Positions 9,980-61,100 of a stretch of 64,000 bases of DNA are shown here, in pieces (the stretch's first letter is position 1; every line of letters begins with the position of its first letter). The stretch spans positions 12,680,790 through 12,744,789 of the forward strand of contig CM119269.1 in NCBI GenBank assembly GCA_051294375.1. The letters run 5' to 3'. Below the pieces are notes generated by a model, which was not told the DNA's origin, did not search any database, and was given only the letters and a program-made list of their open reading frames with translations. Source of the stretch: Paraspadella gotoi. Lineage: Eukaryota; Animalia; Chaetognatha. The translations under genes and the position numbers were made by a program.

Positions 9980-12900
9980 CGGCCACGGTGCTGGTTTTGT
10001 CGGTCGGTTCGTCGGTGCGAGTGTCGGCGTCGTCGGCGACGGTTCGACCGTCGGCGTCGCCTCCTCCATCGACGCCGTCGGAGACCAACACTTTCGCCGC
10101 TGCAAAAGTTAAAAAGTTAACCATTAACCATTGACCACATTAACCATTAACAACATTAACCATTAACTACATTGACCATTAACCACTGGAGAAGAAAATA
10201 TTAAATTTCTAACCGCCGGTTCCCGGACGCGAGCCCGGTTTGTCGCCTCCCATCGACTGCGCCACCGTCCCTAATCCCAAGCGACGCTCCGTCGCGGGGG
10301 CGTGGCCGACTTTGCGGAACTCAAACAAAGTGCTGAGGGCGCCGTCGTTCTTTAAGGTGATGGTTCTGTCGAGGGGTTCGATGAGCGGATTAAGAGATGG
10401 TTTTTTTTTCTACAGATATTTAAATAGAAATACCGATAGAGTGTTTCGCCGACGACTGTGAGCCCGAAGTCAACTGCGTCGGTTTCTACACTGAGGTCGC
10501 ACTTCTTAGTCAGGCATCTGAAGAGAGAGAGAGAGAGGAGGAAGAGGGATGAAGAACGGCGAGAGAGATGAGAGAGAGAGAGAGAGTGAGAGAGATTGGA
10601 TGATGGGGAGATGAGATGATGGAACAATTCCTGAGGATTAATGACAATTCCATCTCTCAACCTGACTGGAATGGAGAATGCTCCCGTCCTGGAGAGAAAC
10701 TGAAGTTCCCCGAAGATGTCCTCGTTGATCTTTGGTTTGAAAGCGACGCTAAAGTCGCAGGTGAGGCCGGCGGACATTTGACCGGGTGGGGAGAAGCAGA
10801 CCTCCATGAAGTCTTGCAGGAGATCGGACATTCGTTCGTACTTGCAGTAGTTGATGCTGTTGGAGAAGAAGAGTGAGATCATCGGAGAAAAAAAAATCGA
10901 TCGGGGAAAAGTTTAATCAAAATGCCGTATACACTGACCTGTACGAAACATTGGTGAGGACGACTTTGCGTTGGTAAGTCTTTCCGACGTCGAAGTCTTT
11001 AAATTCAATGACGCTGGGACGCGAGTAAAAGGGGGCGGCACCCTCGAAGTTGGCGCCCGAGAGAAGAGGGGGACGGACGATGCCCGCGCGATGCTTGTTT
11101 AGAACTCTGGGTCAATTAGAGATTGTAAGAAAATGAGACAGCGATAAGACTCCATGTTGTAACAGAAGGTTTCTTGGTATTGAAGAAAAAGAACCAAAAT
11201 AATTTACATATTGTAGAAATTATTTACAAGCGCCATTAATTGGTGTTAAAATTATGCAATATTTTACAAAATATATTTTGGTTACAATATTATACAAATC
11301 CAGGTTGCTAACAGCGCGACCTCCTAAATTACAACAAACAAACAAACTTGTTAAGGATCTCGGCGTCCATCTTCGACTTGGCGAACTGCGCCCCCACGAC
11401 GTTGGGGTCGACGACGGCGGCGGCGCGGAGTTTCTTAAGACGCTTCCTCTCTCCGCCGCCAGTGTCCCAGAGTCCGGGGAATTCGGGTTCGGCCATCAAG
11501 TCCTTACGGGTCTGGGGATTTAAGATGGGGATCGGGGATTTAGATCGAAACACAGGCGGGGAATGAAGGATCCACTCACCGTCCCACCATCGTCCCCTTC
11601 CTCCTCTTTCTTAGCAGACGCTCTTTCCAAACCGCCAATGACCATCTCCGTTTCCTCCTTTTCTCCTTCTTCCTCTTCCTCTTCCCGCTCCTCGTCTCTT
11701 TCCTCCGTATCTCGACTCAACAGTCGAAATTCCTGGTTTGAAGAAAAAAAAATTAATTCAAAAATGGAATAGTATGGCAGCAGCGGGGTTGCCTGTGATG
11801 CCCATTGGGATGGGGCATCTCACTGTTGGCTTTGGGGGCTCCGACCCTCAGTGACGCATCCAGTCACTGGCGCGGTTACCCTAGGACGGTCTCGCTTTGC
11901 CAACGCAGAGGGAAGTCGTTAGGACTGTGGAGGGAAGACTACGCCTGGGATGGTGTGTTCCCCCTCTGAGCCAATGGATTTGGCTGAACAATGGTGGACG
12001 TGAGGCGGTGTCACATACCGCCACAATTGACTATTTAATATAAAACGAAAATTTGTTCATTTCGACGACGATTTTATTTTAAGAGAAAATAACAACTAAT
12101 TTTCAAACAACGAAAAAAAATGATTTGCACATAATCATACTAAATCTATATCTTTTCAATTAATACCTTGACGGTTCTTGCCATCGCCAGCGCCTCTTCC
12201 TCGTCAACATCCTCTTCCTCTTCCTCCTCCTTGAGTCTCCTCCTAATCTCCGTCTCCACCGCCTTGGGCAGACGGGTCCTCCTCTTCTCCTCCCTCTCCG
12301 CCGCCTTCTCCCTCTCCCTCTTCTTGTCCGGAGGAAACAACCAGGGATACTTCCTCCTCCTCCTCTCCATCGCCGCTTCCTCCTCCATGAGGGCGTGGGT
12401 GATGCCGATCTGTTTGACGCGCTGCTCGCCCTCGAACTCGAGGCGGCGTCGTTCGCGTCGCTCGGCGTCGCGGCGGCGGAGGATTTCCAGATCCGGATTG
12501 CCGCCTGAAGGAGGGGATGGGCGTTTCTTGAAAAGAGTTCTTCCAGTCTTCCTTCTTTCTCACCCTTCATTTCTCCCATCCTTCTCTTCTTTCGTCCTTC
12601 CTTTAATTTCTCAATACTTCCTTCCTTTTTCTTCTCCTTTACTTTCTTCCTTTCCCTTCTCCCATCCTCCCTTCCTTTCTTCCTTTTCTCCCATCCTCTC
12701 TTCCCATCCATACCTTGAGCGGCGATCTTAATCTTCTCTTCTTCCTCCGCCTTCTTGGCCTTCTCGTCCAAATGCCTCCTCTTATCGTTGAGCGCTTTGA
12801 GGTTGGATCGGTTCTGGTCCAAGTCCTTCTTCAACTTCAACAGCGACGTCATCTTGGCCTCGTGGTCGGCGTGACGGGCCTCCGCCGCGGACTCCTAAAT

Positions 12901-14825
12901 CCGGAGTTGACGTTATAACAACCAATTACGGAGTTACTACGATTCCTACCCGGTTCCTACGAACCTTTTCCTTTCTCAGCGCCTCGACGGTGCCGTGGAA
13001 GATCTTCCGGTGCCGATTGTGAGCCTCCCTGGCGCCTTCGCGACGCATGACCCGCTCCCCTGCGCGGACCCGCATCCCTTCCTCCGCCTCCTGTCGCTCG
13101 GCGCGTTGGCGTCGATTCGTCGCGCGGCGTAGCTCGTGTTCGCGCAAAACTCTCATCTGAGCGTCCTGCATCTCTTCCTGTAATAAATTGATTAAAATAT
13201 TAAGTCAACGTTGATTGTTAACATTAAGGTTTAACTTAAAAACGAATAGTTTATAGTGGAAAGGAACTGCAAGGCCGTGCCTTTGCGAGTACAAAAAAAA
13301 GCTTTTTTTTGTAAAATAAAGAGGGAGAGAATATAGTCAAAACGATGAATGACAAAAAATTGTTTTTCAGTACTGTCCACAAGGAAAATACACTTCGTGC
13401 TACTCTCAGTGTATGAAATGAGTCACCGTCACCACCAGCGTCACCTGCTTCAATCTGGCTTCGTTCTCATCGAGAAACAACTCGTCCAAGAGACGAACTC
13501 CTTTTTCGATGTCGATCTCGAAAAACTCCAACTCCACCTTGCGGACGACCTCGCGCACCTGGAGAACGGGAAGAGGGTAAGTGGAACCTTGAAACACCAT
13601 TTTCACCGAGAGTCGAAACTTACCTTTTCCTCCAACTTGGCCTCCGACTCGATCTCCCTGCACATCCTCGCGTGCTTCCGCCGCAACCGATCGGCCAAGG
13701 CCCGGTTGTTGTCGGCGTCGGCGGCGTCTATTCCCGCGAAAGCGGCGTCTCTCTCCGCCTCCAAATCGGCGAGACGGCGCCGACACTTGGCCTGCTCCTC
13801 CGAGGCCAGTTCGAGGACGCGGCGTCGGTCGACGTGGACGCCGTTCATGTAGTTGATTTGTCTGAGAGGAGGGAAAAGAAGAGAGTGGGACGAGGAAAGG
13901 AGGTGAAAGGGAGAAGGAAGGGAGGAGGGAGGAAAGAAGCGAAAAAGGAGAAGAAAAATAGGAGGAAAAAGAGAAAGGGAGGAAAGAAGAGAAGGAAAAA
14001 TAAAAGAGAAAAAGAAAAAACACGTTTAAAAAAAAACAACAACAAAATGAGGAAATAGGAGGAAAGAAAAGAAAAATCAAAGAATTAAAGAGAAGCCAAT
14101 TGACGTTATAAGTTCAGATTAACCAATATGAAATTGGCTAATCAGTTTCTGTAAACCCCCCTTCCCCCCCAAAAAAAAAGTACACACTCACTTCCGCAAA
14201 TAAATGAGAAAATGTCTCTCCTTTCGCGTGAGACGAGGATAAACGATCTGTTGTTGATGACGTCGTCTCGTCTCTTCGTCGTCGTCGACGTCGTCGTCGT
14301 CGGTGTAGAGATCGGAATCGTAAAAGTCCTCGAAGGCCTCGTCCTCCGTCGCCGGAGAATCCGCCTCCCGATCAGACAAATCCGGCGCCTGGAAGGGGGG
14401 GGGAGGAAAATGATAACGACAACAACAAACATGTATGCATACATACATACATGCATACATACTGACCTCCCCGAATCTTCCTGCGTCTTCCTCCTCCTCC
14501 TCCATCCTATGCTCCTCTTCCCTCCTTCGCCCCTCGGCTTCTTCTTCCTCGTCCGAGGTCTCCGTCACAGGAAATCTCGGGGTTCCGTCCAGGGGCACGA
14601 TGAGTTCCCCCTCGTGGGCGAAACCCCCGGGGGTTGAACCCAAAAGACCCGAGACTCCGGGGCCGCCTGTGGGAGCGAGAGAAGGGGTTAAGGATAATAC
14701 TAATTTGTTTTTCACCAGGCCTGTGTTTCCTGTGTCGTCTTTCTGTCTTAATCTTAGCCCCCACCTCCCCTCGAGTACTCACCATGGTCAGGAGGCGCTG
14801 GGCTTTTCTCTTTCACATTCTCCAT
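9980..14825 (-). CDS. CFAP74: Cilia- and flagella-associated protein 74 (multi-exon; C-terminal part not found in window)
   Basis: Probable start MENVKEKSPAPPDH at 14825, followed by coiled-coil exons. Then PFYSRPSVIEFKDFDVGKTYQRKVVLTNVSY / INYCKYERMSDLLQDFMEVCFSPPGQMSAGLTCDFSVAFKPKINEDIFGELQFLSRTGAFSIPV / CLTKKCDLSVETDAVDFGLTVVGETLYR / TITLKNDGAL, which matches the first Ig-like (ASH/PapD-like) domains of CFAP74 as I recall them. Confidence 0.88.
11772..12026 (-). mobile_element. ~255-nt structured dispersed element carrying a twister ribozyme motif (copy B, in CFAP74 intron 11733-12166)
   Basis: Reverse complement aligns end to end with 58600-58856, with about a dozen differences by eye. 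It is a GC-rich island in an AT-rich intron and contains multiple hairpins. Confidence 0.85.
11825..11904 (-). ncRNA. Twister ribozyme, type P5, variant lacking one A in loop L4
   Basis: Minus strand reads GTTGGC AAA GCGA GA CCGT CC TAG GG T^AA CCGC GC CAGTGAC TGGATGC GTCACTG AGGG TCGG AGC CCCC AAA GCCAAC. It is the same fold as 58723-58803 but with AGC instead of AAGC. Confidence 0.72.
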
Positions 14826-15345
14826 CTCCTTTTTCTCCTCTCGCGCCGCCACAAATCCCAAAGCTCTCTCTTTTTATTTTAATCAGCGCCGCACACCGAT
14901 GCAGCGCCATCTTTTACGTTTCTTTCACTCATTTCCTTCACTTTTATCGACTAGATATGAAAAAAATGAATTTGTTGCTTGATTTTTTTGTGATGAAGGT
15001 ACGATTATGACGATAAAAAATTGTTCATCAAAAAAAAACAAAAAAAAAAACGTTCTACATTTAAACTGATTTGGGCTTAATGAAATGGTGGTAGATCCAA
15101 AATTCCGTCTGAACAAATTAGTATACAGGAGGGACTATTTTGAATAAACGATAGCCTTGATAGTAAAATAAAAAATAAAATCATATCGATGTCTTAAGAG
15201 ATTCATTCGACAAAAAAGTAATAAAATTGAGATTATTTTGCTACAGAAATGTAAATATTAAATTAAAATTGCAAAAATAATGAATGTTTATCTGGCAAAA
15301 AAAAAAAGACAAAAAAAAAAAACTTTTTAAAACTCGCAATAGATT

Positions 15346-26539
<11,194 letters not shown>

Positions 26540-27620
26540 CTTGAGCTGTTCTCGTAGTGGTTCGAAGGCTTAAAGATAATTTAAACAATTTAGCGTTAAA
26601 ACAGGTAAAATAGGTACGAATTGCTTATAAAATATAACCTGTGAAGCACCCAAAGACAAGTTAAGAACCCTAGACTTTGTATCGTCGGCGGATGGGAACG
26701 AATTGGGGAGGAAACAGCAGATTCGTCTTCAACTGCTAAATTTTCGAAACAAATTTTTTCACCGAACGTTTTATTTTTCTTTTATTTTCTTTTTTTCTTC
26801 ATTTGTGACGCCAACAGATGTGGAGTATAAGGTAAGTTACGCTTGTGTGTTATGTTATGAAAAAATTCTGGCAAGAAATAAACAGTAATTGTATAAAAAA
26901 AAATAAGAAAATTGATTGAGCCGTTTCATTTGCGAATACAATGTTATGAAACCAAACAGTATCAGAGTAATTAGAATTGATTCCATTTTTGCGGGAGTTT
27001 ATTACAATTAGTATTTTTTAAAAATTTGATGGTTACATTTTTGTCTTTCTTTACAATACGTGCACTCAATTTGAACTTTCTGTTTGAAAGATTTATAATA
27101 CTTTTAAGTTCAACCCAAAGTTCATCAAAAGATCATGAATTTGAGTACATAGTACACACATGAAGTTCAAAGCATTGATGTTATGAAATTGGTACAACCA
27201 ATATAAAAATATTATATTTTTTAAATTAAAATAATGACTGACTTATTTAAAAAATTCTTATCACAGGAAAGATAAGTGCAAAATTTTATCTATAAATTTT
27301 AAAAATTTTTCGAGCCAAACGAAAAATTGTTCCGAAATTCAAACGTATTAAAAAATAAATCCTTCATAAAATATAAAAATAGAAAATAGTGAAACAAGTC
27401 ATTTAAAAATTTTCATTAATAAATAATAAATCGTTAATAATAAATAATAAGTCGTTAGGCGCCTAACACAATAATGCGAAAATTAAAACAAAAATCAAAT
27501 AAATAATTACTGAACCGAATAATAACCCAAAGGCGAAACAAACCTATAAAATTATAAAATCAAATAAAAATTAATTCTGAAACAAATTCTTGATTTTGGT
27601 GTTGGTCTTTTTGTTTCTTC

Positions 27621-27634
27621 GTCGTCATAGAAAC
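27621..27634. promoter_or_regulatory. Candidate RFX X-box in the divergent DRC2/CNOT9 intergenic region
   Basis: GTCGTCATAGAAAC fits the X-box consensus GTHNYYATRRNAAC. It lies ~1.1 kb upstream of the ATG of the ciliary gene DRC2. Confidence 0.45.
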
Positions 27635-28242
27635 GAGGAAGTCCTCAGTCTCGAGCGTCGATGGCTGCGCCCTTTGCTTGGAGGGGGAATAACCCTCTTG
27701 CCGGAATATTTCAGCGTGCTTCAAGGTTTATAATTAATGCTTAGCTTAACTTCAAATTTCTTTTAAATATGCTGTTCGTTAAAATCTATCACGTGTTGAC
27801 CATTGCTTACTTTCACATTCGCTAGGTGTTAAATTGTAGTATTATCTTTTTCTCTTTCGGAAAGTACAGATGCGTTCGTAGTTTTTAGAATATATTTAGT
27901 GTAACAGAATGTGTGTTTTTTTTTTCAGTTTTTAAAGCCGTAAATACCGAGCGGTTTTACTATCTATTGTATGATTCTAATTTGACGAGAAAAATGTCAA
28001 TTCTAATGCCTCACCCAAGTCGTAAAATCAAAACCTTTCCTTGAGCTATTCATTTGTTTTCGTCTCCCGTCTGGGTTCTTTAATAATGTGTTCTTCCCTT
28101 AAATTATATGTGAAATATTATCTAAGTAATTTTTTGTTGCAGAATTATGTGCCATAGAAGTCTGCAGGTTTATGCTCTATAGTCCCGAATACAAACATTT
28201 ATTGGATAAGATAAAAAAGGGGTTCTTTTATCCTTATCAAAA

Positions 28243-29366
28243 ATGAACCCGCTTGTCGCAACGCCGCAACCCAGGCTCATGAATCTCGGTCAAGGCCAAG
28301 TTTCGAGTAATCCTGGCATGAACTTGGGATCCACGACTCCACAACCCATGAACAGCACGACACCAGCCCCCAACGTTCCGGGAAGTGGACTGCCAACCTC
28401 TCAAATTGATAGGGAGCGTGTTTACAATTGGATTATTGAGCTTTCTAACCCTGAAGCCAGGGAAAATGCCCTCCTGGAATTGAGCAAAAAGAGGGAAGTT
28501 GTTCCCGATTTAGCGCCCATGTTGTGGCATTCCTTTGGTACCTCCGCTGCCCTCTTGCAGGAGATTGTCAACATTTATCCGGCCATCAACCCTCCCACTT
28601 TGACGGCCCACCAGTCGAACAGAGTTTGCAACGCGCTAGCTCTCTTACAATGCGTCGCTTCTCACCCAGAAACGCGCACCGTTTTTCTCAAGGCCCACAT
28701 ACCCTTGTTTCTTTACCCGTTCTTGCACACGACTTCAAAGACTCGACCTTTCGAGTATTTGCGGCTCACGAGCTTAGGTAAGATTGAGTTAGTACAAAAT
28801 TGTTTCGATAGAGCAAAGGACTTTTAAAATACGGATTAATTAAGTATTTATTAATTAATTATGTAGGTGTTATCGGCGCGCTCGTCAAAACGGACGAACA
28901 AGAAGTCATCGATTTTCTTCTGACGACGGAGATCATTCCTCTCTGTCTCCGAATTATGGAGGCGGGGAGCGAACTGTCCAAGACGGTCGCCACCTTCATT
29001 CTACAGAAGATCCTGCTGGATGACACCGGCCTCTCTTACATTTGCCAGACCTACGAGCGCTTCTCACACGTCGCTCTCATCCTGGGGAAAATGGTTCATC
29101 ACTTGGCGAAGGAACCCTCGGCTCGTTTACTTAAACACGTCGTCCGCTGTTACTTGCGGCTCTCTGACAACCACCGAGCCCGAGAAGCTTTGGGCCAGTG
29201 TCTTCCCGACCAGTTGAAGGACCAGACTTTCGTCAACTGCTTAAAGGACGACCAGAGCGCTCGACGGTGGTTGGCCACGCTCTTAAAGAACCTAGAATCC
29301 CCTGGGGGCATCGCCGGCGGGCTTGCCATGCCCGGTCCCAATCTTATGCAACCTGGACCACAGTGA
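28243..29366 (+). CDS. CNOT9: CCR4-NOT complex subunit 9 (RQCD1/Caf40); exons 28243-28777 and 28867-29366
   Basis: [65 protein letters not shown]|[45 protein letters not shown]. Canonical GT-AG intron. Confidence 0.98.
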
Positions 29367-29835
29367 TTTTTTTTATTTCCTTTTTAACGACAAGAAGCTT
29401 TATTTATTTTTTTAAAAAGAAAATCGTTTTAATTAGACGAATTTCGATCGAAAGCTTTTGGTTTTGAAACCATATTGATGACGGCCTTTTGTAAAAACGT
29501 CAGTCTACATACGAGTACATGATTTGTAAATTGGTTAATTGGAAAATTGTGTACTGCCGACATCCGCTAACTTAGTGTGATCTCAACGGCTTTTGAAGGG
29601 AATTAATCGTACGATTTTGCGACGACGAACTCGTAATTTTTTTGTAGCTTTTTTGTTTTGCTTTGGACACAACATCGCCTCCGAAACTTATTAAGTTACC
29701 ATTGAAACTGCGCCGTCTCAAAAACCACAAAAGTTTTTCTTGTTGAACGATTTTAATCCTTCTAATTTTTTTTCATCGATGTGATTTAATAATTTCCTGT
29801 ACATATAGAAGGAGGGTTTCCATTTTCACTGGAAG

Positions 29836-32341
29836 ATGGTGCTGGATTTAGACCTTTTCCGAACTGAAAAAGGCGGCGACCCCGACACGTTGCGTGACAA
29901 TCAACGCCGTCGATTTAAAGACCCCCGTCTCGTGGATGACGTCGTCAACGCCGACGTCGAATGGCGGCGACTGCGATTCCTCGCCGATAGATGGAACCGC
30001 GTTAAAAAAATGGCGTCTAAGACTGTTGGTGACAAGATGAAGGTGCCCCTAAGTCCTAATGATTTGTCTGAAACGATAACTTTAAATTCCTCTATCCGAC
30101 ATAAGGCGAAAGAAAAGGCGGGTGATTCCGGGGCCCCGTTACCAGAAACAGTCACGGGTCCCGCCCTGGCTGAAGCGACTCCGCAAACAATGTCGGCGCT
30201 CTCAGTGGCGCAGTTAAGACTCGTCTCCGCCGAGGTCGACGCGCGGATAAAGGAGAACGAAGACCAGCTGGAGGCCTGCGATCGTAGGCGTCGGTCAATG
30301 CTCGCCCAGATCGGCAACAAGCTGCATCCCTCTGGTAAAGATATAGAAATTTAAAGGTTTGCTCGATTTGAAGACGCCTCTAATACAGCCTCTCCTTTCG
30401 CAGTGCCGATCAATGACAACGAGGTCTTCAACGAGGTTGTCCGAACCTTCGGCGACGTAACATCGCAACGCCGTTATTCTCATGTCGATCTCATCGTTAT
30501 GATCGACGGCACCGATGGCGACAGAGGCTCCGCAGTCGCTGGGGGAAGGGGCTATTATCTCAAGGGCCCCGCAGTTTTTTTGCAGCAGGTCCGTGAGATT
30601 CGACCGAAATTTGCATTTTAAAAGATGTTGATCGACAAAGATGTTTTCGGACTTTAGGCACTGATCAACCTCGCCCTCCAAAGCCTTCGTCCCAAAGGTT
30701 TTACTCCTATCTATACTCCTTTCTTCATGCGGAAAGAGGTTCGACGCTGTTTCGCTTCGTTTTTTTTGGTCTCGATCTCGCCAACAATTTCCTTTGGTTG
30801 CTATAGGTGATGCAAGAAGTGGCTCAGCTCTCACAGTTCGACGAGGAGCTGTACAAAGTCGTGGGAAAAGGATCCGAAGAAACCGCCGACTCCTCGATTG
30901 ACGAAAAATATCTGATTGCGACCTCGGAGCAACCGATCGCCGCCTTTCATCGCGACGAATGGATACCGACGGAGCAGTTGCCGCTGAGATACGCCGGGTG
31001 AGAGATCGATGGTAGAAACCCTGAGCTTGGAGCCTTTTTTTCGCGTCTACAATCTAGTTATTGATCGACGACTATCTCACTCTGAATCTATCTATTTTCT
31101 TTTTAGCCTCTCCACCTGCTTCCGCCAAGAGGTGGGTTCTCACGGTCGCGACACGCGCGGCATATTCCGCGTCCATCAGTTCGAGAAAATCGAACAGTTC
31201 GTTGTCACGTCTCCCCGGGACGACGAGTCCTGGAACGAGTTCGATCGAATGTTATCTAACGCCGAGGACTTCAATCGAAAACTGGGGGTGCCTTACAGGT
31301 CTGATCGAGGAAAATCGGAAGAGTGAACCTAGAAGGGTGACATCGAATCTACTAGTCGCGTAGAGGTCGCATTTCTATTTCTTGCGGAATCAATTCAGTA
31401 TAAATATTTCATATTTTTTTTAGAATCGTAAACATCGTGTCGGGGGAGTTAAACCTCGCGGCGGCCAAGAAATGTGATTTAGAGGCTTGGTTTCCTGGTC
31501 AGGTAAGCGTTGAAAACAAATGTAAGAGTCAGTATAAAAGAAAGATAAATCTGCACAAAAACTTCCGTGCCGCTAGGGGGTTTTCCGGGAATTGGTCTCC
31601 TGCTCCAACTGCACCGACTACCAGTCGCGGAGACTCAAGATCCGCTACGGCCAAACGAAGAAGATGAACGAAGCACCGGAATTCGTCCACATGCTCAATG
31701 CCACCATGTGCGCGACCACCAGAACCATTTGTTGCATATTGGAAAATTATCAGGTCATTTTTCGATCTAATGATATTTAATATTTTCAATAGTTTCTATA
31801 GTTTTTGAAAATTGTATTATCTTGAAGCGTGCATTTACTTAACTGATTATTTCCGGCTCAGGAAGAAGACGGGGTCCGCGTTCCCGAAGCCTTGTCGCCC
31901 TTCATGCCGCAAAAGTATCGCGCGAAAATCCCATTCGTCAAACCCGCGCCCATCGATCAGGAGGAGACGCAGAGACAACGCAAGCAGCGTCAGGGTCAGA
32001 AAAGTGGCAAGCAGCTTGCTAAGTCGCCAGGAAAAAAAGTTGAAAAACTGACGGCGTCAAAAGTCGAAGCGGAGATTTCGGCGGCGAGAGAGTCGAGGAG
32101 CCGGTTCGACTCTGCGACTCTCTCTACGCCCGAAGGACTTCGAAGTCTCGACGACCATCTGGCCGACAACAGCTACGTTTCGGGATTTTGGCCGACGAAG
32201 GCCGACGTTGTTGCCTTCGAAGGAATCGCTCGTCGACCAACAGAGGAAATGGAAGTCTTCGTCAACGTAGCACGATGGATGAAGCACGTGGATTCGTTCG
32301 AGAAACGAGAGAGGGAGGCGTGGCCGGAACCCTCGGAATAA
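29836..32341 (+). CDS. SARS1: Cytosolic seryl-tRNA synthetase with a C-terminal GST-C-like extension (multi-exon)
   Basis: [63 protein letters not shown], motif 2 [54 protein letters not shown], motif 3 [31 protein letters not shown]. Confidence 0.97.
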
Positions 32342-32700
32342 GACGCTTTGTTTTTTAATGGTAATTTGATTTGATTACATAATATGTAATCAAATATTAT
32401 ATATTATATGTATTTGTTAGCCGTTGTAGTTATTTCATAGTTTTACTCAGAAACAATGGTAATCTAGCTAGAACTTCAATTTTTTTTACTAGAACAGAAC
32501 AATCGCACATAACATTTGCCCCTTAATTTTTCAGGTGAAAACGTTTCGGCTTAGGACTTTCCTCTCCTCAGTTTGCTATGAATCTCGCCTTTTTTAAGAC
32601 GTCCAATAAATTAAAGGATTGAGGGTAGGTGAACAATTAATTCACTTTTGATCTACGTATTAATTTTTTTTCTTTTTGGTTTCAATCGGATTATTTTATT

Positions 32701-46217
<13,517 letters not shown>

Positions 46218-48330: not shown

Positions 48331-50261
48331 ATGTCCTCGGAACCTCTGTCATCTCCGTTGCTTGGAAGAGGCGATGACGTTGAAAACGTCGTGGTTTCAA
48401 AAAACACGGGTCGCCTCAACGGAGATCTCGGCGCCGGAGTCATCGACGATCTTCCCCGGCGTCGAATCGTCATTTCCAAGAGCAGCAGCGGGCTCGGATT
48501 CAACATCCGGGGAGGCGTCGACGCCCCTTACGTTAAGTCCGACGTTGGTAAGGGATTTCTCAGGAAAAAATACTACACCCTGTTTTGTCTTTTGACACAG
48601 TTTTGTTTGATTAGTGTACTGAAACAACCAATTCTCTTTTTCTCTTTCTTTCTCTTTCTTTGTCTTTCTCCCTTCTCCACAAAAAAGGCATCTTCGTCGT
48701 CAAGGTCCATCGCGACGGCGCCGCGGCTCGAGACGGTCGACTCCGCGCCGGTGACAAGATCCTCTCCCTCAATGGCGCCCCCTTGACGAGCCTGCGCCAC
48801 GAAGACGCCGTGGCGCTCTTCCTCGCCGCGCCAGAAAGCGTGACGTTGGACGTCGTGCGGGGAGCGGGCCCTGTGCTGCGGGAACTGGAAGCGTTGGCGA
48901 CGGAGGTCGGAGTGGTCAGGTTCATTTCATGTAATAGGACATCGGCGAAATTGAGCCGCAATTCGAGTTGTATTTTCCCTTTCTCACATTTAGTCCGCTT
49001 GCAAGTCCCGAAACGGAAAAGACCATTAACAACAACAGCGACAACAGTAACAACAACAACAGCATGGACGGCTTGTCGCCCATAGCTTCATGCAAGCTCT
49101 TTAACGAGGCCTGTCCTGAACCTGAAGACACTGCTTCCACAGAACCGATTGATGGCGATGCAGCTCATTCAGTAAGCATAAAGCAACTGACTCGCTTTCT
49201 GGCTTCATATTTTATTGAAAAAATTCCCTTTCATTATTTTCCAGTCACGTGTCAGAGTCGCTTCTGAAGTCAAATCAGTCCCCCAGCGTCGAATATCTTC
49301 CAAAAAAGGAGCGAAGGATCGTCGCGCCGAAACGAGCGGCGACGGCGTCGATGTCACTCTCGAAAAACTAGTAGAACTGAGGTCGACGACGTTATCATCT
49401 CCCGTTTCTACGATTTCTTCTCCCGTCGACTTGGAACCTTCCGTTGACGCGATTCGCGAGGATCTTTCTATCACCGACACGGATCACCCGAAAGACTCGG
49501 AAATCTCGCTCGAAGAAATGAGCTCATCTGAGGCAAACGCCATTCCAGCCCGCACTCCCTTCACTATAACAAAACGATCGAATGAAGGTCAAGACGACGA
49601 AGACGAAGATATCAACGTTGAGGAAATCCTGTTGGTCGTTCCCGGGGTCAACGATCACGCCATTCCCAACGCCGTCTCCCTGTCCTCGCCATCCTTCCGT
49701 TACGAACCGTCCGTAGATCGGTCCTCCGGTCTTCCATTTTCCCTCGATCTCCGCGCGAAGGCTCAGGTTTTCGACGGTGGCGCCGACGTCGAAAACCTCG
49801 GCGATGAGTCTCCGCTCTCCGCGGATACGAGCGAGTCGCTATCGATGAAGACAGCGGAAGTTCCGAGGGAGATAGAGATGGCGTCCATGGAAGTTAACGG
49901 TTCTTTCGTCGACGCCGATGAGTCGTTCTCGTCATCCTCTTCGAATCGCATCCTTGGTATTTTCAACGACGACATCCGGGAGAAAAAACGTGGACTCACA
50001 TCCGGGTCTCATGGCGTTTCTCATCGTCCAGAACGACCCGCGGAAAAGGAGGAGCGTTCTTCGCTTCCCGCATCCACGGGTCCGTCGACGGTGCGACCGT
50101 ATCCTTCGACGAGTGCGAAAACGACCGCGGGGTCGGACGGCAGCGGCGAAGGAGAAGAGCGTCTCGATGATCGATTGCTGAAGCTGACGATGGCGCTTGC
50201 GGCGCTGGCGGGCGTCTGTGTCGCCGTTGCAGTGGCACGACTCAGGAAGGTTTTTAAGTGA
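48331..50261 (+). CDS. SYNJ2BP/OMP25-like PDZ protein with a long linker and C-terminal tail anchor
   Basis: PDZ domain across exons 1-2: IVISKSSSGLGFNIRGGVDAPYVKSDV|GIFVVKVHRDGAAARDGRLRAGDKILSLNG...LRHEDAVALF. The protein ends in hydrophobic LTMALAALAGVCVAVAVA followed by basic RLRKVFK. Confidence 0.8.
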
Positions 50262-51590
50262 AAATCAATAAAATCTGGAAAAGCCGTCCTTTTGCTTTTT
50301 CAACTTCTGTCTTGTTCTTGGTGCCAAATATTTTCATCCTTATCCAATCTTATTTGTCTGTCTTTAACAAAAATAGAGTTAGATGAAATGGTTATACGAG
50401 TTAGATGATATGGTCCTCCTACTAATTGACGTTTCATCACAAAGTGAAGTGAGTTTCGGCTTCGAAAGATTTTCTCAATGAAAATTGTTCAGTCTTTTTT
50501 GTCCATGAGATGAGAAATCTTTTTAAAGAGATGCACTATGTATTCTCATTCCTTTATTTGTCAATGCCGCAATAACTGATCTCTCGATAACAAAATGTGT
50601 GAACTGATTGTTTTTAATCGCGCTAAAATCAAACCTGAAATTACATTTTTAATTTTAACGCGAAAATTTTTACTATCTTTCATGAAATTAGATATCAAGG
50701 GGTACGTAATACCGGAGGCACGATTGGTAATTTTTGAGAAAGATTGCTTAAAATAAGCCCATTTCTAGATCTTTTCATTTTATGAAATTGGTACAACCAA
50801 TATTTCATTTCATATTTTATTCCAACCGCGTTGTTTAGTATGATTTAACTTGGTTTTATGACATGTCTAATATGTTTTTGTGATTAAAGTTATTCATAAT
50901 TTATACTCAATTGTCAACGATGTCCTGCTATTGAAATTACTTTTTTTCGCACAAAAAGCAAAGATTTGGACTTTTTTGCTGTTGAAATATTGTTTCATAT
51001 CATAATACATAGATAAACCCCTTACACTTACAGTAGTGGAAAATAAATTTAAGCTGGAATGATCAATTACAGAAATGACTGAAATCATTTGTGCATCGCG
51101 AAAAACTACGCATCTTAACTCGGCTCATGAGCCAAAATTTTCTAATTCGCTTAGTTTTACGTGTTAAAGAGAAGCGTTTTGAAGTAAAATAATAATAATA
51201 ATACTAATAATTTTTCTCTTTCATTCCATTTTTTTGTTATAGCATCTTTTTATTTTTACCAAAATAAGCATGTTTTTTGACCTTTACTCCAACACAATTA
51301 ACGACAGTGCACGTCGACATATTGCACTTATACAATAGTATTGTGATAACTTTTAGGTATCAGTCTTAAATCTATTGTATCAAGAGATTATCATTATATT
51401 TAAATAAACATTCACTCCCGTCAGCAACTTTGAAAAGTTCGCAACTAGGTCCAATTTAAATGTAGATCTCACAAAAGACGCTTAATTTACAAGCAGCTTT
51501 TAATCGTTAAATCAAGCTTTGTTTACGTTATATGTCGTTTTGTTTTCAGTCACAGTCGTTAAAAAAAAAACTGTTGGTAAACTTTTGGCG

Positions 51591-53088
51591 ATGTCATTAT
51601 TGGAAGACCTCGATGGAGCTGGAGATCACCGTATGATGGCTTTCGCCGCAAACAGCGGCAAATCGAAGAATCGCGCTCGTGTGAATGCGAATCCTCATCG
51701 GCCGTCTACTCGATCGATCAGAGTCACGGGAATTCCCGGCCGCAGGTTGTTTCTCTCATCAAATCGGGACCAGCTCTCTCTCTCTCTCTCCCCCCATGGC
51801 AATTTTTACTCGACCGCAGACACGTGACGGACTCGGCGTTGATGGACCTCTTCCTGCCGCACGGTCCAGTGACGGGATTTGAGCGGAGGCGCGACACTCG
51901 AGGCGTTGAGGCCGATTCCACGCAGGTTGTCGTGGGGAAGATGGTTTTATTATTTCAATTTTTTTTTATAAAATTATTTTAATTATAAGGTTGTGGTTTC
52001 GTTCGAGACGGAGGAAGCAGCTTGGGCTGCGCTTCAAGAAGTTGAGGTGAATCGTAAGTTTATTTTTTAAGATTTAAAAACCGCGAGGAGAGGTGGTTGA
52101 AGGTGTGGCTTGTCCCCCACAGTTAATGTGGGTAGGCGGTAAGCTTGCTCTATGGTTTAACCGACTCGTCACTTTTGTGCAAGATCCGTTCCGTTGGTTG
52201 CTAGAACCGGGAGGATGGGGTTCAGAAATGAAGCGTTGGCTCATTACTTGACTTATGACGTTGCAGCAACTTAATATGTCGGTTGCTGATCTCGGACAAC
52301 TCTTTTTCAAAGGGTAGTAATATGGCATCAATACTAAATGATTTCTTGACAATTCGTCTTTTATCAGGGACTGGAGATTGCGAAGGGTGCCACTTTGGCC
52401 GCCTTCCCTTCCTTCGAGCGAGAGAAGTTGGAGCGCGACGCGGAGATGAGGCGGGAAAAGGCGTTGAGGGTCAAGGAGAGAGAAGCAGACGCTTTGGCCG
52501 ACTACTTGAGGAAGAGGCGTGCGAGAAAGTACATCGACGACGAAGAGAACAACGATACTGACGACGACGAGGCGAGTTGTTTTACTATGGAAATGGTTTG
52601 CAGTTTTTAAATTGTTACTTTCGAAGCGTAAGTTTACGCGCGATTTGTCTGATGATTTAAACGAGCAAACCATTGAACAAAAATTCAAAATTGTTGTCTT
52701 TATCCCATCTTTGGTCATCACAACTTTTTATCTTAGGCGAATTCGCCCGTCAATTCTCTTCCGGAAACTCCTCCAAATACGCCGCCCGAGACCGAATGTA
52801 ATAATTTATCGGTTTTATTAATCGTGAGGAGTTTCTTATCTAACGCAGAATAATTTATCAGCCTTGACCCAGAACAATTCGAACAACGATTCAGCTTCCG
52901 ATATCACCCGCTCTGGCTCGGCCCTCGCGGAATACTTAAACAAGCTTCGAGAGGCGGAAGAGGTGCGCTCTACATTCGTCGAAGCTTTCGGAGCCGGAAT
53001 GTCCCTTCACGAGGTTTTTCAGGTGGAAAACTTTGGCTCAACGTATCATTTAGGCTTTTGTGTCATGAGGCGAGAAGCTCGTAAATGA
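51591..53088 (+). CDS. Putative RRM-containing protein with a coiled-coil region (~6 exons)
   Basis: Spliced reading: TRSIRVTGIPGR|HVTDSALMDLFLPHGPVTG...|VVVSFETEEAAWAALQEVE|GLEIAKG...FEREKLERDAEMRREK. This follows an RRM secondary-structure pattern, and the junctions are GT-AG. Confidence 0.6.
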
Positions 53089-53643
53089 CAAACAAAATTG
53101 GCGAATGGATTTAAAAATAAAATAAAGGCCTCGTCCTTATTAAAATCATACGTCATCCCAGGATCGTGCATCCTCTCTTCAAGCAGATGGTGTGCTCGGA
53201 ATAGGTCGTCGCCCAAGACTCTCGATTTTCGACAATAGACGTCAGCAGGAATGCAGGTCTTTGATGTTGAGAATGGTGCAAGGAGCTATTGTGTAAATAG
53301 CGGAGACAGGCTGTCATTAAATATTATTCTTTTAATTTAACAGCTTTGTGACCAACGGTCCTAGGAGATTTCCACACTCTCGGCTGCAACTACAATGAAC
53401 ATACATAATGATCTTCTGATTGCAGACTTAAATAACTGGCTGAGGAGCCAGATGTGGCTCCTTCCTACTGACTTTTTTAACTTATCATTGAGCCAAAAGT
53501 ATTGTTAGAAATTGTTTTGTCTTAGTTATAGTGTTGCCACTGCACTGTTGCCTTAATTCATTCTTTTTCTTGTAATCACCATTGATTATTTTAATAAAAT
53601 CATTCCCAGTTAAGTCCTGCTTATTGTTCAGTAATTTACTATT

Positions 53644-56424
53644 TTAAGTAATAGTAGAAGTTCTAAAGTAACGGACGAGGGCTTCCATTTCACAGACAAA
53701 CTCTCGCGCCATTGTCCGCCCGAGCTTACCCGAAGTGCCGATCGCCTTCCAAAATCGAAAGTAATCATCAAAGTTGAGGCTGGTCGTCCAGTCCAGTAGC
53801 TCGTCCACCTCCCATTCCGCCACGGCGTCCGTTCCCGCCGCTTCCGCCGTCTCCGCAACGCCTTCCACAGCTTGACGGACTTGTTCGCCGAGATCCCCGC
53901 CCCTCGTCGAGACCTGTCGGAATTAAAAGGACAATTGGAAATTGATAGCATATATATTTAATAATAATTTTAAGGAATTCATGACCTCTTGTTTCGGTTG
54001 CATTAATCCCATTCCGTACATTTTCCGCATCCATTCAACTTTCCTGTGTTTTTTCCTTCGTAAAACATCTGCGAAGTGAAATGTCGAAAGTTGCTTTTTT
54101 GTTTATCCTCGGATCGCCGAGAATTTCTTCATACTTCATGCCATGTAATATAATATAATATGTCACCTTGCTTTTTGCGGAGTCTGTCGTGATAGGCGGG
54201 CGTGACTTTCCTCGCGGACTCCCACTGAATTCTGTCCGCGTCCAACCGAAGCAAAAGGCCATCGCTGACGGGTCTCCATCCGTTGTTCTCCACTCGCCTG
54301 TACCATCGCTGGTGATTTTCCGTCAGAGCCTGGAGATAAGAGGACCGTTTATAAGATGGGCTATCACTTTATGCGACCAAAACGACGGCTCCAGGAGGAG
54401 GGGGAGGAGTCCAGCACTCCTGTCACAAAAGTGGCAAGAACTGACAACCGCCCACCTCGTCAGCAGGCGAGAAGAGGGCAGCTGGCAGGCGTATCAGGCC
54501 AAAGAGACATTCGAGTAGCACTTGGAATGTTTCCGCAAGGAAGCCTCCCTAGCCCGACAATAACATGTTCGGTTCAATTGTCCTCTCAACCAATGACACG
54601 CCAATGACCCAGCCCCATCGCCCGAGCCTCTCATTTGTCCAAACCAAGGGGGGCCAGCTCACTTTGAGCTCTATCTTAACTCTTAATTTCTAACTTTAGT
54701 AACAATTCTTTACGCTAAATGTATTTTCTCACTTTCACATTTCATTTTCACCTTCACTTAAACTGATTTATTTATTAAATAGTTAATTGTTAATAACAGT
54801 TTAAACTTTATTTGTTGTACATTTGAAATGTAATATTATTTTCTCTCTCCCTGTCTCTCTCTCTCAATCTCTCTCACTCTGACCATTTCATTTCTTATTC
54901 AAAACTAAAATCTCTATCTGTCCTCATTCTTAACCTTTCCTCATTCTTAACCTTTCCTCACCACTTGACCACTATTCTTTTCTCAACTCTGTGTTGGAAA
55001 CTTTGCCCTCTCTCTCTCTCTCTCTCTCTCCCCCCCCCCTCCCTCCCTTCTTTCACACAAAAAACTGTCCAAATTTTCAGAAATCATTGACGCTGAAGAA
55101 GGCTTGTATCCAAAGCCGAAACATGTACGTTTTATGTGATAAAATAAAATTCGTTGTGAAACAAAATCATTTTGCCCCGATACATATAACAACGAAAAAG
55201 AAAGGTTATTACCCCAATAAAATCCAATAATTTTATCGACGAGATTTCTTCCTAGAAATTCATGCGTTTTTCCTTAAATGTTATTATTCCATTGTTAATA
55301 GGTTTCGTTGCTTATAACTTACTTGATGTAGCGGCAGTGGCAGATGAAGTTGGTGATTATGAATGAGACCTGGAGATGGTTTTTTCGTGCTTGCTTTAGT
55401 GTAATCCTTGGGCGAGCTGGCTCCTAGGTCCACCACCTTTAACGAAAACGGAAAAACACTTGTAAAACTGGAGAGCACACTTCCGGATTGCGTTCATTCT
55501 CTACTATATTCCGACCAAAACTTCAGCCCCATAATTCTTACCGGGTTGTGGGTAAAGATTTTGTAATAAATCCTAGGCGGAAAAGCGTCTCCCGCCAACC
55601 GGAACTTGACGTGAAATCCTCCGGCGCCATCCAGCAGCGCCGCCTCGCGAGGGTTCACGCAGCGCAGCATCTGACGAGGATCTCCCTCATAGCGGAAATT
55701 AATAGCATCCTTGTAGTATTGAAATACCTGTGGAACGATGTGGCGAGTGAGCTAATGAAAGTATATTTAGTTTTTATTTTCTGCGCAATAGACCTGACAG
55801 TCGATGTGACGCCTCCACGCACGCTGGATGATTTTCACTGCCACTTCTGGTTTCAAATTCTCGCGACGCTCCTGCAAATATAAACCAATAATAAGCAGAA
55901 CGCTAGAAGCGTACAATCACAAAAACAAAAGGCAAAATGCAATTTTTTAACTTCAAAGCATCGTGATTTCTTTAGTTAAATAGGGTTCAATCAAAATGAT
56001 GACTTTTCATCCGCCCCTGTCTCGATAATTACATTTTGACTTTAATCAATATTTTGAATGTATAAATTAAAATTCTGATCAACCTGAAGTTTCCTGAGTT
56101 TCTCCGCCTCATCCAACTGACGTCTGATTCTTCTCAGCTTCCTTCTGATGTCGTACCACCAGTTTTGGATGATTGTTGCTGAGAAGTCGTCGAAAGGAAG
56201 TGGCTCTTCCTCCATCTCTTCGCTGATTCGCGTAAATTTAAATAAATTTTTCTGTAAATAAGCAATATTTGATATGGCCAATTGACCATGCCGCCTCACC
56301 TAGTGGCGCAGTATGTTTTGTAAAACTTCCACAGTTTCGGGGCGACTGCTTGAGCCCGAGCTTTGGAGCGGCGCGCGGGACCACGTCCCCATGGTGGCGT
56401 CGTCGCTGCTACTGCTCGCGGCAT
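53644..56424 (-). CDS. C11orf65: MFI / C11orf65-like IQ-motif protein (3' end uncertain)
   Basis: AVKIIQRAWRRH; FQYYKDAINFRYEGDPRQMLRCVNPREAALLDGAGGFHVKFRLAGDAFPPRIYYKIFTHNP|VVDLGASSPKDY; WYRRVENNGWRPVSD; KHRKVEWMRKMY; AEWEVDELLDWTTSLNFDDYFRFWKAIGTS. These blocks are colinear with human C11orf65 as I recall it. Confidence 0.9.
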
Positions 56425-58138
56425 TTCGTGGTTTTCGCCACCATTAGTATTTCACAGCTGTCTGCGGTTTGTTTTTAACGAAAAAGGTATTCTTAAACTC
56501 GCGCACAAAAAACTAAGCTTATTATTATTAAATCCTTGGTCAAGACTGCAGCAGTGCTTACGTTTGGTGTTCAGAGCCGAATTGTTCATGTGCATATGGT
56601 ACGTATTCAATAGTCACTATTCATTCAGATTCAGTCGCTTTTGTTTATAACTTGATGTTTTTTTTTCATTTTCATCGTATCTACAAAAACAGAAAAAACT
56701 GAAGTAAAACTTTTCTATCTTTATGGTTTATTTTAAAGGTGACAAAAGAATGTTTTCTTTGAAAAATTATAAGATTTTAGGTAAATCGTAATGTTTTGGG
56801 GTATGACTAAATAACTTAGTTGTTGAATTAAATTGTGCAATAGGTAAGGGAAAATAACAAAAAATATTATGTAAGTTTTAAAAATAAGTAAAATGTTAGT
56901 TGTTTTATATTCGATGGAAAGTTTTTTTTTTTTAGTTTTAGTGGCCATCTAAGATACGGTCCAACTCCAAAACTGAAAAGTTATCTCAGATTATTGACAA
57001 AAATATTTTGAGGCATAAACTGTATATTTTTTTTAATGCCCAAACTATCTATACTATAAATATATTTTCCTTGCGTTAAAAAAATCCCGATAAATAAAAA
57101 AAATAGAAAAGTTATAGTAATCATTTTAAGTAGATTTTTGCCAATATTAATTTTAGTATTGGTTAATGTTGAGCCTTGAAAGTGACTGTACAAGTAGTTC
57201 ATTTGGACAACAAATTGAAACAACATCAGGTTAAAAGTTTACACTTTATTATCAAGGAAACAAAATATTACATTTATTAGAAAATGAATCATACAGTAGA
57301 AAAAAAGGCATTTGGTGGGACGGTGATACGGTAACATATTGAGTTATAATTGAGAATTACAAAATTGAGGCGGCTTATGGTAATTGTTAAGTCCCCTCAA
57401 TATCAAACTTTGGACGGAGGTTGCTCGAGCACTTTTGGTATGCAATTTGGATGCAGCACCAATTTTGTTGCACAACATTTAAAAAAAGTTATGTACATTG
57501 TATAAGCAAGTAAGAGAGTTTACAATCTATCGATATCAAACATTTTGGACGGATGATGATAAGGACACTTTAAGGTGAGCAACTTTGCGATGCGGCACCA
57601 ATAAATTAAGGCAATATCTTTATACAAGTTCAATGGTTTAAAAAAAAAAGATCTAGAAATATTTTCAACTAACTACTAAGATACATACTTTCTATAAAAT
57701 TGAAAAATTATATTTAGTGGTGATAAGGGTTAATCAATCAACAAAAAAATCCCTTATTTTTATTTTATTAAAAGAATTATTGAATCATGCATGGTACTAC
57801 AGAACATTGACGAAATAATTCAAATTCAGACCCGAGGAAGGACGGCCTAAAAACAAACACTGAGTTACAAATATTCTTCTCTTTTAAAGTACTAATTAAT
57901 ATTTATTTTTTAAAACTATCGTGCAATGAATGAAATTTGTGAGTTTAAAAAATTCTTATTACGTTAACACACTAATTTGCTTCAAATGGATAATCATCCT
58001 TGTATCATTTAAACCCTTCAACATAGGAAATATAGTAATAACTAATAAGCATTTTTTGAGCAAATATATTTTCTTTTTCTTGATCGCTAATTCTACCATC
58101 GACATTTGAAACAATTAAATAAAAGGAAGCTCCACCGT

Positions 58139-61100
58139 TCACATCTTGGCCACGACCTCCGCCAACACCTGCGAGTAATTGGTCTCTTCCCTCAGAAGCG
58201 GCAGAGTCACCAACTTGTCGCCCTCCGTCAAACACGTGGTCGACAAGGTCGGGGGCGTGGCTTCCTTGAAGGCGACGCCGAAGGATCGTCCGTCGAGATT
58301 GAGCGAAGGAAGAAGACCCTCGACCACGTTGTCCACGAGGTAAGGATCCTCGTCGATGAGCGCCTTCGTCGTCGTCGTTGACGAAGACGACGACGCCGTC
58401 TTTCGAGGACGCCCTCGCTTCGGCAGCGCCGATGACGCCGTATGTTTCTCCGGCGCCACGACGTCGAAGAGTCGGAGCAGTAGCTCTGGGTTGGACTCTT
58501 TCAACTCCACGGATGTGCGATGGCGACATGGCTCGTCCGAAGGGTCCACCTCCGCTGAAGAAAAAGACCTCGTCAAATATAATCGTGAAATATAAACCCT
58601 TGTGGCGGTATAGTCACACCGCCTCACGTCCACCATCCGTCAGCCAAATCCATTGGCTCAGAGGGGGAACACACCATCCCAGGCATAGTGTTCCATCCAC
58701 AATCCTAACGACTTCCCTCTGCGTTGGCAAAGCGAGACCGTCCTAGGGTAACCGCGCCAGTGACTGGAGGCGTCACTGAGGGTCGGAAGCCCCCAAAGCC
58801 AACAGTGAGATGCCCCATCCCAATGGGCATCACAGGCAACCCGGCTGTTGCCATACCCTCCCCCTAAAACCCTATCCCTGTTTTCTATCCACCTTACCTT
58901 CCTCGCCCGACCCCCACAGCGGAGGTAAGGGCCTCGAATCGTGATGAAGACTCGCGGGTGAGATTTTATGAGGAACGTTGGGCTGTTGCCAGAAAGAGAC
59001 GGGTAAGGCGCGCATCCGCATCGGAAGCGGCGCGTGTTTGGGGTGAAGATGATGCCGCGACTTGGGCACGCTCGTCGACGACGCCGGCGACAATGCCGAT
59101 AAAGAGGCGGCGACGATTTCCGGCGTCGATTCGTGACTCAAAGCCGGCTTTTTTGGCGCCGTCTCGGCTTCGCTCATGGGTGTTGTGGTTAAACGTTCGG
59201 TCGAGGAGGCTGTGGCGTTGCTGGGGACGGATTCGGCGGCGGCGGCGGAGGAGGCGGGGACGTCTCGTCTGATCGCGTAGGTTTTAACTCCGTCTTTGGA
59301 ATTGGTGAGGAAGAGGGAAGAGGAGGAGGAGGAGGATGAGGAGGAGGAAGAGTTGGATTGACGATTGATTTTGGGTCTGGACACATTGATTCTCGGCTGA
59401 GGATTTTGGGTCGAAGCTTGACAGGCGAACGCCTTGGAGAAGGAGCGAAGGGGCGGCTGGGCGTGGCCGAGGAACGTCGACGCGGCGCGGACGGGCGACG
59501 CGGCGCCGACGCTGCTGCTGCCGGTGCCGAACGAAGAGACGCTGACGCCGCTGGAGGAGGAAGGGGAGGGTGGGCTGCCGGTGTAGCAGTGGTCGACGTG
59601 GAGAAAAATCTGTGGGCAAGTGTGGGGAGAGGAGTGAGTGGTTAGTTTAGTGGAGTCAGGAGTGGGATATACAGTTGAGGGTTGGGTGAAGAATCAAGTT
59701 ATGAATAAAGAATTCAAAAAGATATTTAAAGAATTCATTTTCATGTGATTGAAAGATTGTATATATCTCGTTTTAGTTAATTTACTAAATTAGATTATGA
59801 AAAACGCTAAACAATCGATATTAGGAAGATAAGGTCGGTTAAAGGTCAGTCACCTGACCTTGGTTAAGGGTCGGTTATGACTTGGTTAAGATCAGGTACC
59901 TTGTTGCTGTTGTCGTTGTTGTCGCTGTAATTATATTGTGAAATATTAAGCTTAATTCCTTATCTAATTATGTTGTTTTCTGGAAATAGAGAAGCATTTA
60001 AGGGGACCCAGTGATAAAAATGATATCATAAGCTTAAGGGTCTATCATCAAAGGAATTTGAAATGGTGATAGTCATTAATTTTTCTTTGACGGAAAGTGG
60101 CAAAAAAAATTCCTATCTCTTAATGTAGCGGAAACAAAAATTTTATAATTATGAAAAAAAAATTTAGTTGACCCTACCTAAATATTTATATAATCCATTA
60201 TTTTATTTTTGCATTAGAAAGTATTTTTTACTAAATTCCAATTTTTTATTTTTTACTGTACAAAGCTATAATTTTAGGTTAAGCCTATTGAGCAAAGGCT
60301 TTACAAGACTAATATTTTTATATTTTTATATTTACTTAAAGCAGACAAATCAAAACCTAAATTCTATTCTTACAGAAACAAAACTGTAATAATTTATTAA
60401 TTTAATATTCATATTCATCCACTTAAATGTATAATTAAACTATATTGATTCCTAATTATAACAATTAAAAATTTAGCAAAAGTACAGAATCTTTTCTCTT
60501 CTTTTTATATTTATATTACTTCAAAGAGTTTATTTTCATCTAATTAACAGAATCATTTGAAAAAAAAAGTTTTAAATAAATCAGTCGATACTTAAATTTG
60601 ATTCATTCCTAGTTTTTTTTCTTATAAATTTTTGTAATAAAAGCTGAAAATCTTTTTAAAATTAGATCTTACCCTTTTTGGAAAAAAAAAATTTTAAACT
60701 TGAAAAAGATTTTCTTCTTACCGATTTTTTAAAGAAAATTAAGCTCGCTGTTTTTATCGAATTTTTTAACTACTTCCCAAATGATTAATAGAAGAAAAAA
60801 ACTTATATGATCAGAACCAGCTTAAGTTAAAGGGTCAAACGTTATGTTTTCAGCTTTTTACCCCCCCTGTTCACTTGTCCCCTTAAGTCCTATTGCCTGA
60901 TAAAAAGGATTTCTCTCATGGATTTCTAATAGTACAATTAGGAAAGACATATTAACACAATCGACTCAACCACCAAAACATTCCGCAATCACCCCCACCC
61001 CCTCCCGCACCCTCTTCCGCCACGCCCACCACTTCGCACGCCCACCCTTCTGCCACGCCCACCCCTTTCCTCCCGGACTTCCGGGTCTCGACGCTTCTTC

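Follow-up and report, generated by a model that had tools for sequence, protein, structure and literature searches.

In a 64,000-nucleotide (nt) stretch of the genome of the chaetognath Paraspadella gotoi (GenBank assembly GCA_051294375.1, contig CM119269.1, positions 12,680,790 to 12,744,789 of the forward strand; hereafter the window), we characterized a small dispersed element present in two copies. Judging from their sequences, both copies are very probably solo long terminal repeats (LTRs) of a Gypsy-type, CsRn1-like element inserted by an integrase. By analogy with plant retrozymes, we somewhat favour the reading that the element is a non-coding LTR retrozyme, whose unit RNA would be cut out by a predicted twister ribozyme, closed into a circle and copied with the help of a Gypsy element. 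Its mode of action would resemble that of plant LTR retrozymes, yet its ribozyme and its primer type both place it outside that family. We give even chances to the complete picture, in which a non-coding circular RNA of ~480 nt parasitises CsRn1-clade machinery, has left thousands of intronic solo LTRs, may cross species, and represents an LTR retrozyme without precedent in animals and the first to be built on a twister.

The two copies, placed by an initial annotation at 11772-12026 on the minus strand and 58600-58856 on the plus strand, align from end to end with 94.9% identity over 257 columns (E 2e-113). The 11 substitutions and 2 one-base indels agree with the dozen or so differences reported there over the full length. 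No third copy is present in the window, where the best other match has an E value of 0.55. The description of the element as non-coding also stands, since its longest stop-free frame has 65 residues and its longest ATG frame 49. Compared with shuffled sequences, folding gives z -2.9 for the sense strand (0/200 shuffles as good) and z -2.1 for the antisense strand (8/200).

To delimit the element we used contigs of public runs aligned to copy B, including 10,943 from run X6 on a 461-nt stretch and 1,155 from run X2 on 164 nt. Among the X6 rows listed, there are at least 43 left loose ends before 58601 and at least 42 before 58600, and at least 178 right loose ends behind 58855, at least 51 behind 58856 and at least 23 behind 58854. 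The X2 rows listed include at least 80 right loose ends behind 58855 and at least 22 behind 58856. Run X9 (9 and 35 loose ends in the rows listed) agrees on the end at 58855, and X10, X11 and X12 each have one loose end behind that position. Because loose contig ends pile up at 58855, we place the right end there; the element is 58601-58855, 255 nt long, and its TGT...ATA termini were fixed from the loose ends of contigs in six runs. The ends annotated initially are indeed shared between the copies, but the true ends lie one base inside on each side (58601-58855 and 12025-11773), and the extra base at each belongs to a 4-bp target-site duplication (TSD). The copies and their flanks are as follows.

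58601..58855, plus strand: copy B, very probably a solo LTR, 255 nt, TGT...ATA, delimited by loose contig ends; antisense in its host intron.
11773..12025, minus strand: copy A, very probably a solo LTR, 253 nt, TGT...ATA, delimited by alignment; sense in its host intron.
58597..58600, plus strand: left TSD of copy B, CCCT, identical to 58856-58859.
58856..58859, plus strand: right TSD of copy B, CCCT, with no primer-binding site after it.
12026..12029, minus strand: left TSD of copy A, CAAT, matching 11772-11769 at three of four letters.
11769..11772, minus strand: right TSD of copy A, CTAT, with no primer-binding site after it.

A convincing duplication had been missed in the initial annotation; the 4-bp TSD matches at 4/4 letters in copy B and 3/4 in copy A (joint chance 0.0007-0.0009, two loci tested). 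A 5-bp TSD was rejected, as it would need an end at 58854, whereas the loose ends pile at 58855. The absence of a poly(A) tail was correctly noted, no A-rich tail being present, but the proposed pairing of the element ends (TGTGGC with GCCATA) does not hold as an RNA helix (pair probability 0.03-0.05). A T precedes the LTR at 42/85 of the X6 left loose ends listed, and on the right-hand side the consensus begins with an A, which suggests a possible preference for A-N-N-T targets.

The high copy number inferred initially is supported by at least 252 right-flank contigs in X6 alone, so that the insertions number in the hundreds at the least. Two copies per 64 kb (Poisson range 0.24-7.2), together with contig depth, suggest thousands of copies, and the family thus comprises at least hundreds and probably thousands of them. 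The summed depth ratios (~15,000 for X6 and ~34,000 for X2) are not copy numbers, because short overlapping contigs inflate them. In X9, which resembles a spliced library, 460 contigs belong to the element; the greater depth of this run across 58788-58835 was set aside, as contigs give neither level, strand nor ends. No contig of X13 or X14 aligned to the element, which is not proof of absence.

Both copies lie inside GT-AG introns, as annotated. The intron around copy A spans 12166-11733 (434 nt) and that around copy B 58897-58555 (343 nt), and in both cases the flanking exons join in frame without stops. X9 coverage of the copy-B host gene reaches 58554 and resumes at 58898, exactly the predicted splice sites. 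A CFAP74-domain match (PF24771, E 4.6e-22) was found in a downstream exon on the strand of copy A and none in the exons flanking that copy, and we infer that its host gene is CFAP74. The copy-B host gene carries a TEADIR3 motif (PF15238 at 26.6 bits, cut-off 26), and we take it to be FAM181-like. The distance to the splice acceptor is 40-46 nt for both copies.

The class of the element is indicated by what follows the LTR in two other runs. The sole aligned contig of X10 (organism B, study P4) spans 58665-58855 with 3 differences and continues for 85 nt beginning with AG-TGGTGAGCCC. The sole aligned contig of X12 (a biofilm metagenome, study P5) has the identical continuation, 21 nt long. In both, a tRNA-Trp-type primer-binding site begins 2 nt past the LTR 3' end and agrees with the published CsRn1-clade motif over its first 10 letters (10-mer chance ~6e-6 per end). 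Gypsy elements of this clade have 4-bp TSDs, TGT...ATA or TGT...AAA ends, a tRNA-Trp primer-binding site TGGTGA(G/C)CCCG(T/A), and LTRs of 146-368 nt in the rows of Table 1 (PMC2582038). We assign the element to CsRn1-type Gypsy LTRs because its ends, TSD and primer site match these marks. Neither window copy adjoins a primer site or purine run, and therefore both are regarded as solo LTRs.

X10 is labelled organism B, and its only aligned contig is a 98%-identical LTR with the primer site, at depth 6. This copy may stem from slight contamination with an abundant RNA, from an animal sampled along with organism B or from horizontal transfer; sharing across species is considered possible because such a similar copy, with its primer site, occurs in a run labelled as another organism. 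A scan of JGI metagenomes for the LTR end plus primer site gave 0 matches, and IMG/VR scans gave 0 matches twice.

Next, we looked for the ribozyme with a descriptor built from the columns of Table 1 of PMC8501958, permuted to open in P5; the P5 consensus was drawn from the Rfam P1 line, that table and PMC5408937. It has one match in the window, in copy B, and 0 in 100,000 shuffles on both strands (0/200,000 strands). The predicted parts are listed below.

58723..58803, plus strand: predicted type-P5 twister (descriptor match), LTR nt 123-203.
58723-28/58798-803, plus strand: P5 (descriptor).
58732-34/58753-55, plus strand: P2, plus a C.A mismatch.
58736-37, plus strand: G-A of loop L1 (descriptor).
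58738-40/58784-86, plus strand: pseudoknot T1 (descriptor).
58741-48, plus strand: short P1 hairpin of 2-3 pairs.
58749-51, plus strand: UAA (descriptor).
58756-57/58789-90, plus strand: T2 (descriptor).
58759-64/58772-77, plus strand: P3 (descriptor).
58780-93, plus strand: P4/L4 (descriptor).
58749..58750, plus strand: U^A at which self-cleavage is predicted (LTR nt 149/150 of 255), from its homology to the U-A site of loop L1 (PMC8501958).
11825..11904, minus strand: predicted twister of copy A, without one A of loop L4 (opposite 58787), placed by alignment and descriptor.

A P5 twister had been claimed for the element. Copy B parses fully over 58723-58803, with all core letters and both pseudoknots present, but copy A fails the descriptor for the A missing from L4, and its twister is probably impaired. 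T1 reads CCG/CGG in copy B, and the examples in Table 1 of PMC8501958 read GGG/CCC. With n=2, the twister is broken in the copy on the sense strand of its host gene (A) and intact in the antisense copy (B). Rfam scans revealed no hammerhead in the element, and matches to mir-1994 (E 1.7) and AsdA (E 6) were judged to be chance. In a JGI scan, the twister core matched at 3 loci, each time through a chance seed of 19-22 nt outside which there was no similarity.

Sequence variation in X6 (threshold at least 1%; 40 of the 57 rows are listed) points to constraint on this structure. In the listed rows, 7/19 free places of the twister vary against 4/62 constrained ones (Fisher p 0.003), and without CpG the figures are 6/18 and 1/50 (p 0.001). 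None of the 16 core places varies, and the sole non-CpG stem change still allows G-U pairing. Loop L3 contains both of the variants that X2 has in 58712-58875, and the form found in X11 and X12 has a 4-nt loss in that loop. It is likely, on this evidence, that selection maintains the twister.

Outside the twister, the LTR has the following features, for which the usual CCAAT-box and RNA polymerase III (Pol III) A/B-box consensus sequences were used.

58601..58722, plus strand: U3-like 5' part, the most variable (variation of at least 5% at 10/122 places in X6).
58650-58658, plus strand: inverted CCAAT-box match, in the U3-like part.
58654-58664 and 58690-58698, plus strand: weak Pol III A/B-box match, in the U3-like part.
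58804..58855, plus strand: U5-like 3' part with two hairpins (1/52 places varies at 1% or more), followed by AG and TGGTGAGCCC in the X10 and X12 contigs.

Neither AATAAA nor TATA was found in the LTR, and ARAGORN detected no tRNA in the element.

The steps that we propose are modelled on plant LTR retrozymes (PMC4918200). The full element would consist of an LTR, the primer site, a short non-coding middle (perhaps ~225 nt), a purine tract and a second LTR. Its transcript would be cut at nt 149/150 of both LTRs, giving a unit RNA without an R repeat, and ligation would then yield a circle containing one whole LTR. The CsRn1-clade reverse transcriptase could prime on tRNA-Trp and copy the circle, for which the R repeat would not be needed, and the Gypsy integrase would insert the DNA, leaving 4-bp duplications. 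Solo copies might arise by LTR-LTR recombination or from short complementary DNAs (cDNAs) made off the circle. Of the tandem or circular RNA intermediates suggested initially, we thus somewhat favour the circle. No head-to-tail joint of element copies occurs among the 15 of 56 joints listed.

The length of the middle is estimated from the X12 contig, which is 506 nt long at depth 12.8 and has 345 nt before 58712, i.e., flanks of ~234 nt before the LTR (if the LTR 5' part is whole) and 21 nt after it. The upstream flank is probably multi-copy, because nothing else from the sample aligned. Assemblers may collapse a cycle and leave a 30-nt overlap, and the contig is perhaps such a collapsed repeat unit of ~476 nt, with a middle of ~225 nt.

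Several observations weigh against a twister-bearing LTR retrozyme. Regarding the ribozyme, the descriptor was drawn up after the element had been seen, and the Rfam scan of the window gave nothing at gathering score, with a partial match to twister-P1 at 15-17 bits against a cut-off of 67.2 (E 0.16-2.6) and none to the twister-P5 model at E up to 10. When the 81-nt twister is folded with nested pairs and without pseudoknots, another structure is preferred (-31.5 versus -18.1 kcal/mol); P5 and P3 form in it, whereas P1, P2 and P4 do not, the probabilities being ~0 for P1 and P4, and for P2 0.02 alone and 0.37 in the whole LTR. This is not decisive, because the ribozyme is likewise blocked in the folds of plant retrozymes (PMC4918200). 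The C.A mismatch opens P2; the 2-bp P1 is no obstacle, because P1 is dispensable in twisters (PMC5408937). The X10 contig is unbroken across the predicted cut site, as expected of uncut RNA, re-ligated RNA or DNA. The variant test uses contig depths rather than copies, with role labels that we assigned ourselves and 40 of 57 rows, and the U5-like part shows just as little variation as the twister. Regarding the primer site, it deviates from the published motif at letter 11 and occurs in two contigs only, those of X10 and X12, neither run being labelled organism A; in the runs so labelled, the loose-end letters are a blurred consensus of many flanks. Among the three low-depth runs with the 3' end, X11 is without the site, as would be expected of a solo copy. 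Finally, the ~476-nt unit is one reading of the X12 contig, with which an autonomous element is also compatible.

Such an autonomous element is the strongest alternative, although we regard it as rather unlikely. The copies would be solo LTRs, produced by recombination, of a CsRn1-clade Gypsy with gag-pol inside, and the twister would make RNA ends in place of polyadenylation, with which the lack of AATAAA in the LTR is consistent. The ends, TSD, primer site and LTR length are all as in autonomous CsRn1 elements (PMC2582038), and the X12 contig could join the 3' internal end, the LTR and the 5' internal start of a long element. However, cuts at the identical site of both LTRs would remove the R repeat that a linear genomic RNA needs and leave the messenger uncapped, following the reasoning of PMC4918200. 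In addition, no reverse transcriptase, RNase H or integrase match was found among the 50 of 86 long frames of the window that were scanned. Very high copy numbers at ~95% identity are also more usual for small non-autonomous families.

[quoted passage not shown] The disfavoured active fold and the noise-level Rfam score would fit, recent spread could explain the low variation, and Helenus TRIMs of animals give 4-bp TSDs, some of them priming on tRNA-Trp (PMC10886601). The promoter finds some backing in the A/B boxes of copy B, with one mismatch each (41/3000 shuffles as good on the sense strand, 72/3000 on either strand), but copy A fails the box test and no tRNA was detected. Nevertheless, the core letters, both pseudoknots and P5 are all intact, and the variation avoids the constrained places. 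The T1 pairing differs from that of the published examples (PMC8501958), and neither twister L4 word that we searched for occurs in the Helenus/Ajax consensus file (PMC10886601).

The least probable explanation, a non-LTR retrozyme or short interspersed element (SINE) that relies on the reverse transcriptase of an RTE or Penelope element (the class proposed in the initial annotation) or the 5' untranslated region of a long interspersed element, is largely refuted. The 255-nt length does fit animal non-LTR retrozymes (PMC7761336) and known animal twisters do reside in RTE elements (PMC8501958, PMC7761336), but both ends are sharp and of the TGT...ATA type, with a 4-bp TSD and a tRNA-Trp-type primer site, and neither an A-rich or simple-repeat tail nor long, variable TSDs were found. 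Moreover, the predicted cut is in the middle of the element, whereas RTE twisters have it at the 5' end, and no head-to-tail joint was seen among the 15 of 56 joints listed.

A twister-based LTR retrozyme shares features with several described systems. Plant LTR retrozymes have a self-cleaving ribozyme (here predicted) in an LTR of 250-350 nt and 4-bp TSDs (PMC4918200, PMC7761336), as well as Gypsy-derived tRNA primer sites and LTR ends, solo LTRs and non-coding LTRs; they differ by their type III hammerhead and tRNA-Met (PMC4918200), whereas the element described here is of an animal, with a predicted P5 twister and a tRNA-Trp type. CsRn1-clade elements such as PwRn1 and AgCR share the 4-bp TSD, TGT...ATA, the 10-letter primer-site match and the LTR length range, and a ribozyme goes unmentioned for them in the available text of PMC2582038. 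The cestode ta-TRIM (PMC4558846) and Helenus/Ajax (PMC10886601) are likewise short, non-autonomous, Gypsy-dependent elements with 4-bp TSDs and many solo LTRs, at up to ~1,900 loci. The word 'ribozyme' is absent from the available text on ta-TRIM (PMC4558846) and appears in that on Helenus only within a reference title; Helenus LTRs carry a clear tRNA-derived stretch (PMC10886601), whereas none was found in our element. Type P5 twisters (PMC5408937) and the T-variant twisters of Perere-3/RTE (PMC8501958) share with it P1, P2, P4, T1, T2, the UAA site, the GA and GU...AAGC cores and the link to retroelements, but the T-variants are P1-type and located at the 5' end of non-LTR elements (PMC8501958), whereas here the P5 permutation, with a predicted internal cut, is in an LTR. 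Animal non-LTR retrozymes are also small, non-coding, structured and ribozyme-bearing; they are tandem, Penelope-linked, with type I hammerheads and without LTR, primer-binding site or polypurine tract (PMC7761336, 10.64898/2026.07.22.740005), whereas our element occurs as single copies and has a primer site.

Retrozymes are divided in reviews into plant LTR types, with type III hammerheads and tRNA-Met, and animal non-LTR types (PMC7761336, 10.64898/2026.07.22.740005), and animal twisters are linked to non-LTR elements (PMC7761336, PMC8501958). As partial precedents, plant Copia and Gypsy annotations show an enrichment of P1 twisters (PMC11933835), and an LTR-type reverse transcriptase domain lies downstream of 1.6% of Schistosoma T-variants (PMC8501958). 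Our literature search yielded neither a twister within an LTR nor an LTR retrozyme of an animal; cases may be listed in Repbase, Dfam, subscription journals and most supplements, which lay outside it. The available texts of PMC12471100, PMC3286476, PMC6765202, PMC13725137 and 10.1101/2022.07.19.500677 contain no twister in an LTR. If our reading is correct, the strategy of combining a ribozyme with a circle arose again with another ribozyme, in another kingdom and with another helper clade, and eukaryotic twisters would gain a concrete, testable role. Thousands of copies would allow tests of covariation, of the origin of solo LTRs and of ribozyme loss in sense-strand intronic copies.

Elsewhere in the window, a compact housekeeping cluster (28210-35000) includes Rcd1/CNOT9, which a short intron interrupts, along with the N-terminal domain of a seryl-tRNA synthetase and a domain resembling Arc1p-N. 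The best animal homologues of Rcd1 are 79-84% identical, and there is no close relative among its homologues. A second small dispersed repeat occurs at 4209-4346 and 26148-26285 (138 nt each, 94%), with an older partial copy at 61395-61508 (~74%); it has no Rfam match at gathering score. Lastly, 5510-7983 and 8137-10616 form a 2.5-kb inverted duplication, 94-98% identical and centred on an N gap (8112-8136), which repeats a CFAP74-domain exon on the other strand and may be a fold-back artefact of assembly or amplification.

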